This document shows, piece after piece, positions 4,432 to 45,238 of a DNA stretch of 62,867 bases (position 1 is its first letter; each line of letters starts with the position of its first letter). Below the pieces are notes generated by a model. That model was not told the DNA's origin. It searched no databases and was given only the letters and a program-made list of their open reading frames with translations. Source of the stretch: a virus (Duplodnaviria > Caudoviricetes); IMG/VR virus record IMGVR_UViG_3300042905_000668, positions 1 through 62,867 of that record; one strand, given 5' to 3'. The position numbers and the translations under genes are program-made.

Positions 4432-4579
4432 TTTGTTGCTCCGGTGCATCTAATCTGTTTATGAGCATCTTGTACGCTTGGATTGTGGCTTGAGCCTGAG
4501 TCAAAAAGGTTTGGGCCTTATGTGCTTCAGTCTCAAGTTCACTAATCTCAGACTCCAAGAATTCCTTGGTGATCTGCAT
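4415..4579 (-). CDS. 54-aa coiled-coil protein (not in ORF track)
   Basis: MQITKEFLESEISELETEAHKAQTFLTQAQATIQAYKMLINRLDAPEQQNDDAI; TAATG overlap with the upstream stop; fills the operon gap. Confidence 0.75.
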   Translation of the reverse strand: MQITKEFLESEISELETEAHKAQTFLTQAQATIQAYKMLINRLDAPEQQNDDAI

Positions 4580-5181
4580 TATGCAAAGGTCGAGTACGCA
4601 GGAACGTAGTACACAGTGCCGCCAATCATCACTTTGATTGCTTTGGCTACAGTAGTAACGCTGGTTGCTGTAGGCGCAATCGTAGCAGCAGGGGCTGTTT
4701 CAATGTTCATCAACAAAGGAATCTCACCAGTGTTTGTGCCGCTGTCAGACACGCGAATGAACGAAGCAGTTGCAGGCAAAGTTGCATTAACTGTGTAGGC
4801 GGTGTCCAGTTGAATAACAGACAAAGTACCGCCGGGAGTAGCGTCAGACCCGCCTAAAGTAGCGCGGATTGCATTAGCTGCGCCGGAGATGGTTGCTGAT
4901 GCGCCGTCAACACTTAAAGAAATGTGTGCACCGTTGATTGTGCCGCCTGTTGCAGCAGCAGTGCCCGTTACAACGGAGAAAGCACGTAGCGTCTCGCCTG
5001 AACCTGTAGAGGTAAAGGTAAGTTTATTGTAGCTTAGACGTGTATCGCCAGTAGCGGCGGATGTTGTAGCAAATGCAGCGTTAATGTTTTCTGCTGTAGT
5101 TACTGCAAGAGGAGAAGCAGAAGTGCCCGTTTCAAAGCCGTTGTTAGATACGACTGGGCCGGAGAACGTGGTGGTTGCCAT
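4579..5181 (-). CDS. Ala/Thr-rich capsid fibre/decoration protein
   Basis: MATTTFSGPVVS N-terminus, located just after MCP; C-terminal IKVMIGGTVYYVPAY. Confidence 0.65.
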   Translation of the reverse strand: MATTTFSGPVVSNNGFETGTSASPLAVTTAENINAAFATTSAATGDTRLSYNKLTFTSTGSGETLRAFSVVTGTAAATGGTINGAHISLSVDGASATISGAANAIRATLGGSDATPGGTLSVIQLDTAYTVNATLPATASFIRVSDSGTNTGEIPLLMNIETAPAATIAPTATSVTTVAKAIKVMIGGTVYYVPAYSTFA

Positions 5182-5187
5182 GATGTG

Positions 5188-5262
5188 TCCTTACATACAA
5201 GTGAAGTGCATTAGTCTGTATGTCGTCAGCCGGGACTGTCTAATGCACCGGATAACCCCGGG
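5188..5262 (-). ncRNA. Candidate structured cis-regulatory RNA (interlocked double pseudoknot) abutting the SD
   Basis: Three complementary pairs in a-b-a'-c-b'-c' order: 5256-5261/5230-5235, 5240-5248/5206-5214, 5217-5223/5193-5199. Confidence 0.55.
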
Positions 5263-5270
5263 TTGAAAGC

Positions 5271-5299
5271 AATATACAACAAAAGAAAAGGGGGCACAA
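5271..5299 (-). promoter_or_regulatory. Putative sigma70 promoter TTGTGC-N17-TATATT
   Basis: -35 lies in the loop of the capsid terminator; 17-nt spacing; start site would fall just before the structured leader. Confidence 0.5.
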
Positions 5300-5310
5300 G
5301 CCCCCTTCTC
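5281..5310 (-). terminator. Rho-independent terminator after the major capsid gene
   Basis: GAAGGGGGC-TTGT-GCCCCCTTTTCTTTT on the minus strand. Confidence 0.85.
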
Positions 5311-5330
5311 CAAATATTTCCTAAGAAATA

Positions 5331-6239
5331 TTAAGCACCGGCAGAACCGAACATGCCCAATGGGTCAGACCAGCCGAAGCTGTAACGCTCACGAGACTTG
5401 TAACGAACGTTACCTGTATCGAAGTCGCCGTCCATTGACTGAGCCAAAGGCGAACGCACAAAGTGCTTCATACCGTTAGGCACGTCTGTGCACAAGAACC
5501 AAGCGTTGGTATCAGTCAAGAAGTGGTTAATGGTATATCCACCGGGGATAGAGCCATTGTTCTTCAATGCGTTGATATCATTGTCAGCAGTAGCCACACG
5601 CAATTCAGTCTCAAGCAAGCGAGTTGCCGTAAACTGGAGTGCAGGTGGAACCACCAATTTGCTAGGTTTAGCGGCGATCAACAGGCCACGCTCGTCTGTC
5701 CACAAGCTAATCTGAATAACAGCGTTTTCCAACGATGTTTCGTTCAAGTCAGCAGGGGTAGATGGGATGTTACTGTTAGTACCACCAGACACCAAGGGGT
5801 GTGCTGCACTGAACAATGCAACACCGTCACCACCAGCGTAAGCATTGCTGAAGCCGTTATTCAAAACAGCGGCAGCTTTAACTTGCTTGGTGTAAGCCAT
5901 AGCGCGGGCCAAAGCCTTCGTGTAACGAGCAGACAGTGAGTCATACAAGTTATCTTCGATAGCCTCTTCAGTCAAGCTGAAGCCCAAAGCGATGGTTTCG
6001 TGGTTGTATCGGGCAGTCCATGCTTCTTGCGCATTGTCATAAGCAATGGCAGAACCCTCGTTTTTAACGGGGGCAGCAGAGAAACCAGACAGTTTTGTCT
6101 CTTCTTCAAAAGAACGCTCAGAGGTTTCAGTTTCATAAATTTCTTTATGCTCTTCACCATATTTTGCGTACTCCAAACCGAACAAAGCGTTCAGGCCGGG
6201 GAGAAGTTCTTTAAGTAGTTGTGCGCGTGAAATAGCCAT
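5331..6239 (-). CDS. Major capsid protein (HK97 fold, Mu gpT-like family)
   Basis: MAISRAQLLKELLPGLNALFG, ALFSAAHPL, KLVVPPAL, RYSFGWSDP motifs; strong RBS and terminator. Confidence 0.9.
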   Translation of the reverse strand: MAISRAQLLKELLPGLNALFGLEYAKYGEEHKEIYETETSERSFEEETKLSGFSAAPVKNEGSAIAYDNAQEAWTARYNHETIALGFSLTEEAIEDNLYDSLSARYTKALARAMAYTKQVKAAAVLNNGFSNAYAGGDGVALFSAAHPLVSGGTNSNIPSTPADLNETSLENAVIQISLWTDERGLLIAAKPSKLVVPPALQFTATRLLETELRVATADNDINALKNNGSIPGGYTINHFLTDTNAWFLCTDVPNGMKHFVRSPLAQSMDGDFDTGNVRYKSRERYSFGWSDPLGMFGSAGA

Positions 6240-42808: not shown

Positions 42809-45238
42809 TTATCGTGGAGTCAAAGCGTTGTTTAACGCCAAAGCACTAACACCGGCTGTACCAAAACCCGCTAATTGATTACCCAATGTAGGCTGTGCTT
42901 GATATTGAGTTGTAGTCTGGCCGGGAACGGCATAACCACGCAACAAAGCGTTGTATTGATTGAACGCAGTCATAGGCGCTTCTTGCGCTTGCGCGTAGTT
43001 TTGGATCGCTTGGTTGATAATCTGCTGTTGCTGACTTTGTTGCTGTCCACCAATCTGATTCTGCAAACCAAGAATGCCTGTCTGTGCAGCAAGTTGCTGT
43101 GTGCCAAGTTGACCAAGCTGCCCGGCAGCCTGATTAGCTAACCCGTAACCAGCTTGTTGTGCGCCAACACCTTGTAGACCTGCTTGTGCACCTTGCATAC
43201 CTTGAGCAGTACCTTGTAGACCAACACCTGCACCTTGCAAACCAAGCTGACCTGCGTTGATAGCTTGGCCAACACCTTGAAGACCCATACCGGCACCTTG
43301 CATAGCTTGCGCAGTACCTGCCAGTCCTGTATTGGCTCCTTGTTGAGCAAGTTGACCTGCGGCAATTGCACGGTCTGCGGCAGAAAGGCCAATCTGTGAC
43401 CCTTGCATACCTTGTGCCGTACCGGCCAATTGACGATCCACACCGGATAAACCAACTTGCGCACCTTGCATAGCCGCTTGCGCACCCTGCATACCTTGGG
43501 CTGTGCCAGCCAGTTGAGCGTTGACACCTTGCAAGCCCATACCAGCACCTTGAATGCCAGTTTGGAACGCTTGATTTGCGGCGTTGACACCAGACAGACC
43601 TGCTTGCGCACCCTGCATACCTTGGGCTGTACCTTGAAGTCCTGTCTGCGCGGCTTGAAGACCCATACCTGCGCCTTGCATGCCAAGGCCATATAAAGAC
43701 CCAGCTTGACCAAGACCTGCAAGACCCGCTTGTTGACCGGCCATAGCTTGACCAATACCAGACAAACCAAGTTGACCACCTTGTAAGGCAGTACCTAGAC
43801 CGGATTGCGCACCACCCAAACCTTGAAGACCAAGATTGGAGCCATACTGCATAGCCTGAATGGCTTTGTCGTAAGCGGTTTGCTGGCCTTGGGCGCGAAT
43901 GGCGTCCATCTGTGAAGCCAAAGCACGGTTAGCTTCAGCATTTTCAATAGCCTGACGTGACCCACCAAACGCACCCGCACGAGCGGCGGCAGACTTACGG
44001 CCTTGAGCGGCAATATCAGCTTGGCGTTGAGCGGCTTGAATTTGAACATCAGTCACAGCAGACTGATATGGGTTCATGTACTGCTGAATAGCGTATGGGC
44101 TTGTCATTTGACGAGCGTAATCTTGCCCTGCGGCGGCTTGTTGGGCCGCATAGTTACGTGCTTGCCCTGTAATATCTTGCCCTAACGCTTCTGCACGAAG
44201 ACCCATCCGACCAATGTCGGCGGCAGACTGTCCATACATTTGCGCTTGGGGAGCCATTGCGGCGGCTTGTGCGCCATAACCTGAACCCATTGCACCATAA
44301 CGATTAGCGGCTTCAAGGGCAAGTTGCTGACCAATCTGACCAGAGCCAAACCCAGCTTGACCGTAACCTAACGCTTGATTGGACAAGCCAGCGGCTTGTT
44401 GGCCATAACCCGCACCCATACCACCATAGTATTGACCGCCCTGAATACCTAATTGTTGGCCAAGCAAACCTGATTGCTGACCTTGCAGACCAGCTTGAGC
44501 GCCCATCTCACCAAACCGTGCGCCACCTTGAATGCCAATGTCTTGACCCATGAGGCCAGACTGCATGCCTTGAGCGCCAGCTTGTTGCGCCATACCAGTA
44601 GCCATATTTGCACGAGCTAAAGCGTCTTGTGCAGCAAAAGCTCCAATACCTTCACCACGGCTACCAGCCTGCGCACCTTGCGCACCGTAACCATAGGCTT
44701 GGTTTTGAGCCATGGCCGCGTTTCGGGCAGCGTTTTGCGCGGCTTGTTGGCCCAACATTTGGCCCATCTGACCAGATTGGAACCCTGCTTGACCGTAACC
44801 TGCGCCTTGAGCGGCAGTGTTTATACCCCCTTGAGCCGCCATGTTTGCCAAGCCTGTAGCTTGATTGTATTGGCCGGGCACCATCAAATTGGCCGCGTTG
44901 TACTGCACCTGCTGTTGCAGGGGGCTAAAGCCCGCTACGTATTTAGAGGGGTCGGTACTGTAAGGTGTAAACGGACGGGTGCCTGTAATTTCATCTGATA
45001 CCGCGCCTGTTGTTGGGTCAGTTACTTGCCTAGTTTGGAACAAGTTTTTACCTGCGCCCATGAGCACGTTTTCAACTTGGGGGCGCAACCAGTCAGGCAC
45101 ATTGGATTGCGTAACCGTAGTGCTTGTTGGGCCTCCACCGCCGCCACCGCCATAAATAATGCGACCACCTTCTTTACGGGTTACGGATTCGCCAAGGGGT
45201 TCACCCATAGCATAAAGTTCTCGGCGGGAATAGCTCAT
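42809..45238 (-). CDS. Ejection (DNA pilot-like) protein with long Gly/Gln/Ala repeats
   Basis: GGGGGGG...TTVTQSNVPDW, VAGFSPLQ, YMNPYQ, AGAFGGSR motifs of podovirus ejection proteins. Confidence 0.75.
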   Translation of the reverse strand: MSYSRRELYAMGEPLGESVTRKEGGRIIYGGGGGGGPTSTTVTQSNVPDWLRPQVENVLMGAGKNLFQTRQVTDPTTGAVSDEITGTRPFTPYSTDPSKYVAGFSPLQQQVQYNAANLMVPGQYNQATGLANMAAQGGINTAAQGAGYGQAGFQSGQMGQMLGQQAAQNAARNAAMAQNQAYGYGAQGAQAGSRGEGIGAFAAQDALARANMATGMAQQAGAQGMQSGLMGQDIGIQGGARFGEMGAQAGLQGQQSGLLGQQLGIQGGQYYGGMGAGYGQQAAGLSNQALGYGQAGFGSGQIGQQLALEAANRYGAMGSGYGAQAAAMAPQAQMYGQSAADIGRMGLRAEALGQDITGQARNYAAQQAAAGQDYARQMTSPYAIQQYMNPYQSAVTDVQIQAAQRQADIAAQGRKSAAARAGAFGGSRQAIENAEANRALASQMDAIRAQGQQTAYDKAIQAMQYGSNLGLQGLGGAQSGLGTALQGGQLGLSGIGQAMAGQQAGLAGLGQAGSLYGLGMQGAGMGLQAAQTGLQGTAQGMQGAQAGLSGVNAANQAFQTGIQGAGMGLQGVNAQLAGTAQGMQGAQAAMQGAQVGLSGVDRQLAGTAQGMQGSQIGLSAADRAIAAGQLAQQGANTGLAGTAQAMQGAGMGLQGVGQAINAGQLGLQGAGVGLQGTAQGMQGAQAGLQGVGAQQAGYGLANQAAGQLGQLGTQQLAAQTGILGLQNQIGGQQQSQQQQIINQAIQNYAQAQEAPMTAFNQYNALLRGYAVPGQTTTQYQAQPTLGNQLAGFGTAGVSALALNNALTPR

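Follow-up and report, generated by a model that had tools for sequence, protein, structure and literature searches.

The stretch of viral DNA under study (the window, 62,867 nt) carries on its minus strand, at 5331–6239, a gene for a Mu gpT-like major capsid protein of 302 residues, an assignment based on the open reading frame and on matches in Pfam (Phage_capsid_4, 1.7e-14; Mu-like_gpT, 9.7e-09) and PHROG (major head protein). On the same strand follow an intrinsic terminator at 5284–5311, recognised by the terminator scan as a 12-pair stem and then a T run, the RNA element examined here (5261–5193), a Shine-Dalgarno (SD) sequence AAGGA (5188–5192, read directly) and, from its ATG at 5181–5179, an open reading frame (4579–5181) whose 200-residue product is a putative capsid cement or decoration protein. 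Two promoter-like hexamers are also present, TTGTGC (5294–5299), inside the terminator loop, and TATATT (5271–5276), which lies 17 nt further on and ends 9 nt before the first helix of the element. The terminator loop of the capsid gene is at the same time the −35-like hexamer, being TTGTGC or TTGCGC here and TTGCAA in other clades (for example L040, L044, L054 and L082). In aquatic phages of a very abundant group, the element makes up the whole 5′ leader of the gene that comes after the one for the major capsid protein. Terminator-like sites near it were reported by the scan only at 5311–5282, that is, upstream, and the element itself has no G+C-rich hairpin with a U run such as an intrinsic terminator or attenuator possesses, its last strand running into AAGGA. 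A contig of 202 nt from an RNA library spans 5176–5366 and so links the capsid gene's end with the terminator and the element; it could be a read-through transcript or DNA. A second one covers 5011–5242. These contigs carry no information on starts, ends or strand, and the low RNA-library cover over 4579–5136 is uninformative.

A preliminary description of this site had claimed three interlocking helices of 6, 9 and 7 bp, and these are present in the window in the strand order a, b, a′, c, b′, c′. Helix a joins CCGGGG (5256–5261), at the predicted 5′ end of the transcript, to UCCCGG (a′, 5230–5235) through five Watson-Crick pairs and one G-U; helix b joins GUGCAUUAG (5240–5248), a strand defined by covariation, RNAalifold and the single-sequence centroid, to CUAAUGCAC (b′, 5206–5214) through nine Watson-Crick pairs; and helix c joins ACAUACA (5217–5223) to UGUAUGU (c′, 5193–5199), which abuts the SD, through seven. 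To these the alignments add a fourth helix that the preliminary description did not contain, h, formed by CAG (5236–5238) and CUG (5227–5229), which turns a′ into the loop of a small hairpin. The unpaired letters are few: an A between b and h (5239), ACG after the 3′ strand of h (5224–5226), GA before b′ (5215–5216) and, between b′ and c′, UUCACU. Within c′ of the window and its relatives an AUG is directly followed by UAA (UGA in another clade) that overlaps the SD; this start-stop mini-frame occurs in some clades and is missing from others, and we have not treated it as a feature.

Taken alone, the window sequence gives mixed evidence on whether this fold exceeds chance. Dinucleotide-shuffling the 112 nt (5188–5299) 20,000 times never produced an interlocked triple of 9, 7 and 5 Watson-Crick pairs, and gave a stem of at least 9 bp in 155 cases. 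The minimum free energy of the nested fold is unremarkable (z +0.46, with 130 of 200 shuffles folding equally well), a value that is uninformative because pseudoknots lie outside the folding model. A first helix scanner, permissive and allowing G-U pairs, returned spurious interlocked triples in unrelated sequences and at many loci, and we replaced it by covariance models. The case thus rests on comparison with relatives, for which we fetched 80 IMG/VR loci with capsid proteins 86–99% identical to that of the window; the regions downstream of their capsid genes show the element with plain compensatory changes. Two covariance models were constructed, one on helices b and h from 20 seeds (R1) and a second on helices a and c (R2), each with an alignment fitted to its own helices (A2 to b and h; A3 to a and c, with 74 distinct rows), and each set of helices finds support on the alignment fitted to the other.

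The covariation that the preliminary description had named among its checks was found, and is strong, at all four helices, across about 75 related loci. For the four-helix structure on the alignment fitted to a and c, whose figures include one spurious row (window 43713–43794), 87.7% of the cells are paired and 400 show double changes, where shuffles give 69.1% (0/500) and 124; the covariation score is 0.553 as compared with 0.225, and sliding the partners by one to three columns lowers pairing to 29–41%. The alignment fitted to b and h gives a similar picture. Helix b is 94.8–97.4% paired, with all nine pairs changing on both sides, and helix h is 97.7% paired, its first pair being CG in 74 of 74 rows and its middle pair UA in 33, AU in 28 and CG in 6. 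Helices a and c are 82–92% paired, and both-side changes are seen at five of six and six of seven pairs, respectively, the variants of helix a including CCGGG/CCCGG, CUUGG/CCAAG, CCAGG/CCUGG and CUAGG/CCUAG. Applied to the alignment fitted to a and c, RNAalifold independently predicts b and h, 12 of whose 13 predicted pairs changed on both sides. Besides the pairs, a set of letters is at least 90% conserved, namely C.GG of strand a, an A and a C before h, the G of h, a C and GC in the region of a′ and the 3′ strand of h, and then GAC and GA; the junction letters pointed out earlier as GAC are among them, as are the junction A, AC and GA. A comparison of G-U with A-C cells as an indication of strand gave 61 against 41, which is weak.

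The local 5′ hairpin in which strand a would alternatively pair with CCGG (5248–5251), overlapping the first base of b, is backed modestly and in a subset of sequences (78.8% against 72.8% paired; 19 double changes against 6.9) and is absent from whole clades. A second match of the models within the window, at 43713–43794 on the plus strand (E 0.21 with R1 and 3.6e-05 with R2), was rejected as chance, as it lies antisense in an 809-residue open reading frame, in a repetitive stretch, and lacks the helices; the repetitive, low-complexity sequence of this minus-strand frame extends over 43600–43900. Altogether, we consider it practically certain that the element is a real structured RNA, evolutionarily conserved and doubly knotted.

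The promoter-like TTGTGC-N17-TATATT noted previously gains comparative support: a box of the form TTGNNN-N16–18-TAnnnn, in which TAnnnn shares at least four of six letters with TATAAT and ends 6–11 nt before helix a, precedes the element in 56 of the 74 distinct sequences upstream of it, where shuffles yield 1.2. It is kept in three settings, with the −35 in the terminator loop, within a spacer, or at an endonuclease gene's 3′ end. A stricter scan for consensus promoters reported nothing at the element site in the window or in two relatives (three sources), because the −10 is often TATAAA or the −35 is weak. Judged from sequence, the conserved box 6–11 nt upstream means that the fold probably begins the transcript. 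At the other end, the statement that the last helix ends at the SD holds in 72 of 72 rows: the SD starts 0–3 nt after c′, and the end of c′ lies 8–15 nt from the AUG in all of them. In one clade c′ is GCAUGAGG and includes the SD. In the window the SD and the AUG are unpaired and b′ (5214–5206) lies 13 nt upstream of the SD; simple occlusion is therefore inapplicable to the window's form.

The first model finds the element in 72 of the 80 capsid-anchored loci and once convincingly in the window, and the second matches the same 72 loci and two GenBank phages. Among the eight loci without it, two end within 85 nt of the capsid gene (L004, L039) and four end 400–710 nt past it (L008, L047, L064, L075), three of these inside an inserted reading frame; the other two (L028, L076) give no model match despite 1.4–1.9 kb of downstream sequence. 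Searched alone, a 15-letter core pattern returned 71 loci, all 71 of them model matches, and a capsid homologue (50–92% identical) lies upstream on the same strand in 70, either 41–108 or 590–1675 nt away; in the last one the sequence reaches only 51 nt upstream. Free-standing endonuclease genes have repeatedly been inserted between the capsid gene and the leader (L012:3129-3719 and L013:2655-3458; also, for example, L008, L016, L028, L029, L046 and L047). These homing endonucleases are of a GIY-YIG type with NUMOD3 and of an endonuclease-VII or HNH-like type, and behind them the leader keeps its own promoter-like box. In loci that have both such an insert and the element, the element stands 3′ of the insert and directly before the next gene: it travels with the downstream gene and not with the capsid terminator.

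This record contains a single copy of the element, as do four of five others. The fifth, a 65-kb contig (G001), has two matches, at its ends (L287 and L288), each end carrying a capsid gene, an endonuclease gene, a leader and an accessory gene; compensatory changes distinguish the two leaders, and the accessory genes belong to different classes. A tandem pair was rejected for this contig, since two diverged versions stand at opposite ends, which look like two co-assembled strains or a module swap. Among phage contigs binned with metagenome-assembled genomes the element is present in 25 of the 43 loci searched, a count that leaves out L128–L132, which end inside the capsid gene. The expanded form, as we call the type found in the window, occurs in Pelagibacter phage HTVC023P (E 5e-13) and in the metagenome-assembled phage DSL-LC04, where a second, weak match has E 0.005; HTVC027P holds at best a diverged copy, and Roseobacter phage CRP-901 carries the form described by the Rfam family RF03012 (72.3 bits; see below). 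Planktothrix phage Pag-Yong1 has a different, G+C-rich leader at the same site, perhaps a third way of meeting the same need. Inspected by eye, this leader (L083:3900-4010) shows a CCCGGGG/CCCCGGG helix interlocked with CCGUCUCC/GGAGACGG, the strand GGAGACGG covering the SD.

The gene behind the leader varies strongly in both length and sequence. In the window its product has a conserved N-terminus, MATTTFSGPV, and a variable body; it has no match in Pfam or PHROG, tblastn against phages found nothing, and AlphaFold2 reached a pLDDT of 34.8 alone and 37.1 with 11 sequences. Its designation as a putative capsid cement or decoration protein derives from its first ten residues, which are identical to those of a DSL-LC04 protein annotated 'cement protein', from the GenBank annotation of the equivalent Pag-Yong1 gene as 'minor capsid protein' and from a weak lead to Phage_cement_2 in the Atlas (score 0.78). 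The window's version of the gene is found in only 5 of the 80 close relatives. Across the relatives (L001–L286) the downstream proteins are hypervariable, with 64–329 residues, and most begin M-(A/G/S)-x-T-T-F-S-G-P; at least two other N-terminal classes, MAVSTTQSIWRSGGGD and MGFATHLGPWLLGT, were observed. Variants of the RNA core (GAU/AA in L006, L034 and L022) do not track the N-terminal class of the protein, which argues against autoregulation by the accessory protein.

The preliminary description had not recognised the element as a named family, a statement that stands as far as direct matches go and needs amending in view of an orphan family in sister phages. The proposed comparison with Rfam (release 15; window 4800–5700) gave no family matching the element at E up to 10; rows for ctRNA_p42d, sraA, sX14 and L20_leader were sub-threshold, lie over the capsid-gene terminator and were discarded. 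RF03012, named Mu-gpT-DE, likewise has no match in 4800–5700 (E up to 10) or in the whole 62.9-kb record, nor in 12 diverse relatives at E up to 1; its gathering threshold is 49 bits, positive controls scored 50–74.5 bits and the window lies below. Mu-gpT-DE is said to come from a set of 224 candidate RNAs presented by Weinberg and colleagues in 2017, and Rfam lists it under the type 'Gene; sRNA' with function unknown. The string 'gpT' is absent from the main text of Weinberg et al. 2017, where the motif drawings are placed in the supplement. Of the papers searched, Rivas 2020 alone mentions Mu-gpT-DE, in a single passage that counts it among the families with differing Rfam and ZWD structures.

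However, RF03012 matches (74.5 bits) a phage contig (L110) whose capsid protein is 76% identical to that of the window, and it does so at the same site. We examined 80 loci centred on the L110 capsid, 46 of which are matched by the expanded-form model. Among the first 20 of these loci RF03012 matches 8, and among 20 more that were model-negative it matches 11; five model-negative loci were left out of the Rfam scan. The two forms were never found together: in the 20 loci tested with both models, 8 match RF03012 only, 11 the expanded form only and 1 neither. Like the window's element, which itself lies just 3′ of a Mu-gpT-like major capsid gene, Mu-gpT-DE follows the terminator of such a gene, begins a few nucleotides from a −10-like box and precedes a gene for a protein starting M-(A/G)-x-T-T-F-S-G-P. 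Furthermore, inspection of the RF03012 consensus (CCUG, A, a C-G-closed hairpin, AC, 8–9 nt, GA, CAGG, then AG) beside our alignment A3 suggests a common core, in which an outer helix encloses an A, a C-G-closed hairpin (CAG..CUG), AC, a stretch of 7–9 nt that pairs with a 3′ partner in both forms, and GA.

The differences between the two forms lie in what surrounds this core. The window's element has an extra 5′ strand, a, which pairs with the hairpin loop, and its outer helix has 9 bp and keeps clear of the SD, in contrast with the 4–5 bp of Mu-gpT-DE, whose 3′ strand CAGG overlaps the SD. It also has a dedicated c′ strand upstream of the SD, whereas Mu-gpT-DE uses the start codon instead, and the expanded form extends over about 70–80 nt against 53. 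Indeed, in all 21 RF03012-type leaders that we have aligned (A4, including L214:2614-2674), the 8–9 nt junction pairs with the start-codon region through 4–6 Watson-Crick pairs, with GCCA/UGGC where the second codon is GCU and CCCA/UGGG where it is GGU, two sequences using a shifted register. By this reading of the sequences the internal junction of Mu-gpT-DE appears to be knotted with the start codon and the next two to three bases, a pairing that corresponds to helix c. As the last position of the Rfam model is the G of AUG, this pairing probably falls outside it. Similarity between the models is not significant: positions 22–54 of R1 align onto the RF03012 site in L143 and L147 at E 2.6 (2 of 11 loci), and the expanded-form models miss the other RF03012 sites. 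Homology of the two forms thus rests on the shared site, skeleton and downstream gene, and on these grounds the window's element would be best filed as an expanded, hitherto undetected double-pseudoknot variant of the Mu-gpT-DE family and not as a wholly new class.

Since strands of the RF03012 form pair with the SD and the start codon, we read the fold as a cis-acting 5′ leader that serves as translational operator of the capsid-accessory gene. The preliminary description had offered translational control, a small ribozyme and a structural or packaging RNA as alternatives; the first is favoured by context, the fold being the whole 5′ untranslated region, abutting the SD in 72 of 72 rows and staying with its gene despite inserts, and the other two are unsupported, the packaging option facing one copy per genome. 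A sigma-70-like promoter would start transcription 0–3 nt before helix a. In the RNA b, h and c make up a compact three-helix junction, and helix a, by pairing the 5′ end with the loop of hairpin h, locks it into a double pseudoknot, as the covariation shows. This fold would set or switch ribosome loading on the accessory-gene message, in the minimal RF03012 form presumably by direct occlusion of the SD and AUG, and in the window's form through a rigid knot, open to recognition, on the side of the SD that faces the ribosomal platform. It would also keep the 5′ end buried and so guard it against decay. The near-invariant junction (A, AC, GA and the C-G pair closing h) would be the recognition surface, and its invariance suggests recognition by a conserved partner such as a phage structural protein, the 30S subunit or a small ligand; the hosts being unrelated (Pelagibacter, Roseobacter), a universal or phage-encoded partner is argued for. 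Of the components of this reading, action in cis on the downstream message is quite likely, and an effect exerted mainly at translation initiation is about evenly balanced; control might perhaps also extend to message stability. The operator reading as a whole is the best overall explanation, and we give it an even chance.

The most probable of the alternatives is a constitutive shield of the 5′ end, in which the knot blocks decay by RNase E/RppH or by a 5′–3′ exonuclease (RNase J), as viral exonuclease-resistant RNAs do, so that the message of an abundant structural protein outlives the rest and closeness to the ribosome-binding site reflects merely a minimal untranslated region. It agrees with helix a, or the outer helix of RF03012, starting a few nucleotides from the predicted transcript start and with the entire untranslated region being fold plus SD; exonuclease-resistant RNAs also have a similar topology, a helical junction with two pseudoknots engaging the flanks. 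However, a simple 5′ hairpin would suffice for this, the invariant junction letters and the SD and AUG pairing of the minimal form indicate more than protection, and the transcript start is only predicted; we judge the shield unlikely.

Doubtful to a greater degree is a riboswitch, whose three-way junction with invariant A, AC and GA would be a small-ligand pocket and in which binding would stabilise or release the helices touching the ribosome-binding site. Pseudoknots, covarying helices, several unpaired letters conserved at 90% or more, presence in phages of different hosts and the involvement of the SD and AUG in the closing helices of the minimal form all go in this direction, and small pseudoknot riboswitches likewise hold the SD in closing helices. 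Yet only about seven unpaired letters are conserved, the regulated gene is structural and has no metabolic logic, there is no ligand candidate, and in the window's form the SD is not sequestered. The broader idea that the fold is a sensor, either a new class of riboswitch or a protein-sensing switch tying accessory-protein output to a signal at the junction, we regard as similarly improbable.

The remaining alternatives are weaker still. A put-like processive antitermination RNA, whose nascent fold would bind RNA polymerase and allow it to read through the terminators of the structural operon, would suit the element's place, which directly follows a promoter-like site and precedes a long series of genes on its own strand, but leaves the strict abutment of the SD and the SD and AUG pairing of the relatives unexplained, and is very unlikely. 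A trans-acting small RNA, as implied by the Rfam type of RF03012, is slightly less probable again, as no terminator follows the fold, which leads into the SD and AUG of a reading frame in 72 of 72 rows. Least probable is a self-cleaving ribozyme that would process capsid read-through transcripts: the fold is compact and pseudoknotted with a conserved junction, and CUGACGA of the window resembles the hammerhead CUGANGA box, but a search at E up to 10 gave no match to any Rfam ribozyme class (hammerhead, twister, pistol, hatchet, HDV-like and others), CUG is the covarying 3′ strand of helix h, the GA that comes next varies among the aligned sequences (GA, UU or GC) and a promoter-like site directly upstream would make processing unnecessary.

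These results give the orphan Mu-gpT-DE a function-oriented context, since both it and the expanded form look like 5′-terminal leaders of one gene and not like free small RNAs, and they join the two in a larger family, part of which escapes the current models. Its members provide a natural series, from a minimal knot that swallows the SD and AUG to a four-helix double pseudoknot that stops at the SD, and thus a ready experiment on the tuning of translation by leader pseudoknots; its presence in the cultured phages HTVC023P and CRP-901 makes an RNA common in nature open to experiment. Were the sensor idea true, the switch would be carried by HTVC023P-type phages and their freshwater relatives, which are among the most abundant phage groups known.

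Leaders that control ribosome loading through structures at the ribosome-binding site include those of ribosomal-protein operons (the double pseudoknot of the S4/alpha operon, S15/rpsO and the L20 leader) and, in T4 gene 32 mRNA, a 5′ pseudoknot. The element resembles these operators in being a 5′-leader pseudoknot that abuts or includes the ribosome-binding site, and differs in that there is no similarity in sequence or model and that their binding proteins have no known counterpart here. PreQ1-II and SAM-II/V are small pseudoknot riboswitches that sequester the SD; like them the element is a short pseudoknotted leader with 3′ strands reaching the SD, and unlike them it has no Rfam match and no ligand and stands before a structural gene. 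Flavivirus exonuclease-resistant RNAs share the outline of the element: in some 70 nt they too combine a helical junction and two pseudoknots, through which both flanks, 5′ and 3′, are engaged. The partners are, however, swapped, the 5′ end of the element pairing with a loop and its junction with the 3′ flank.
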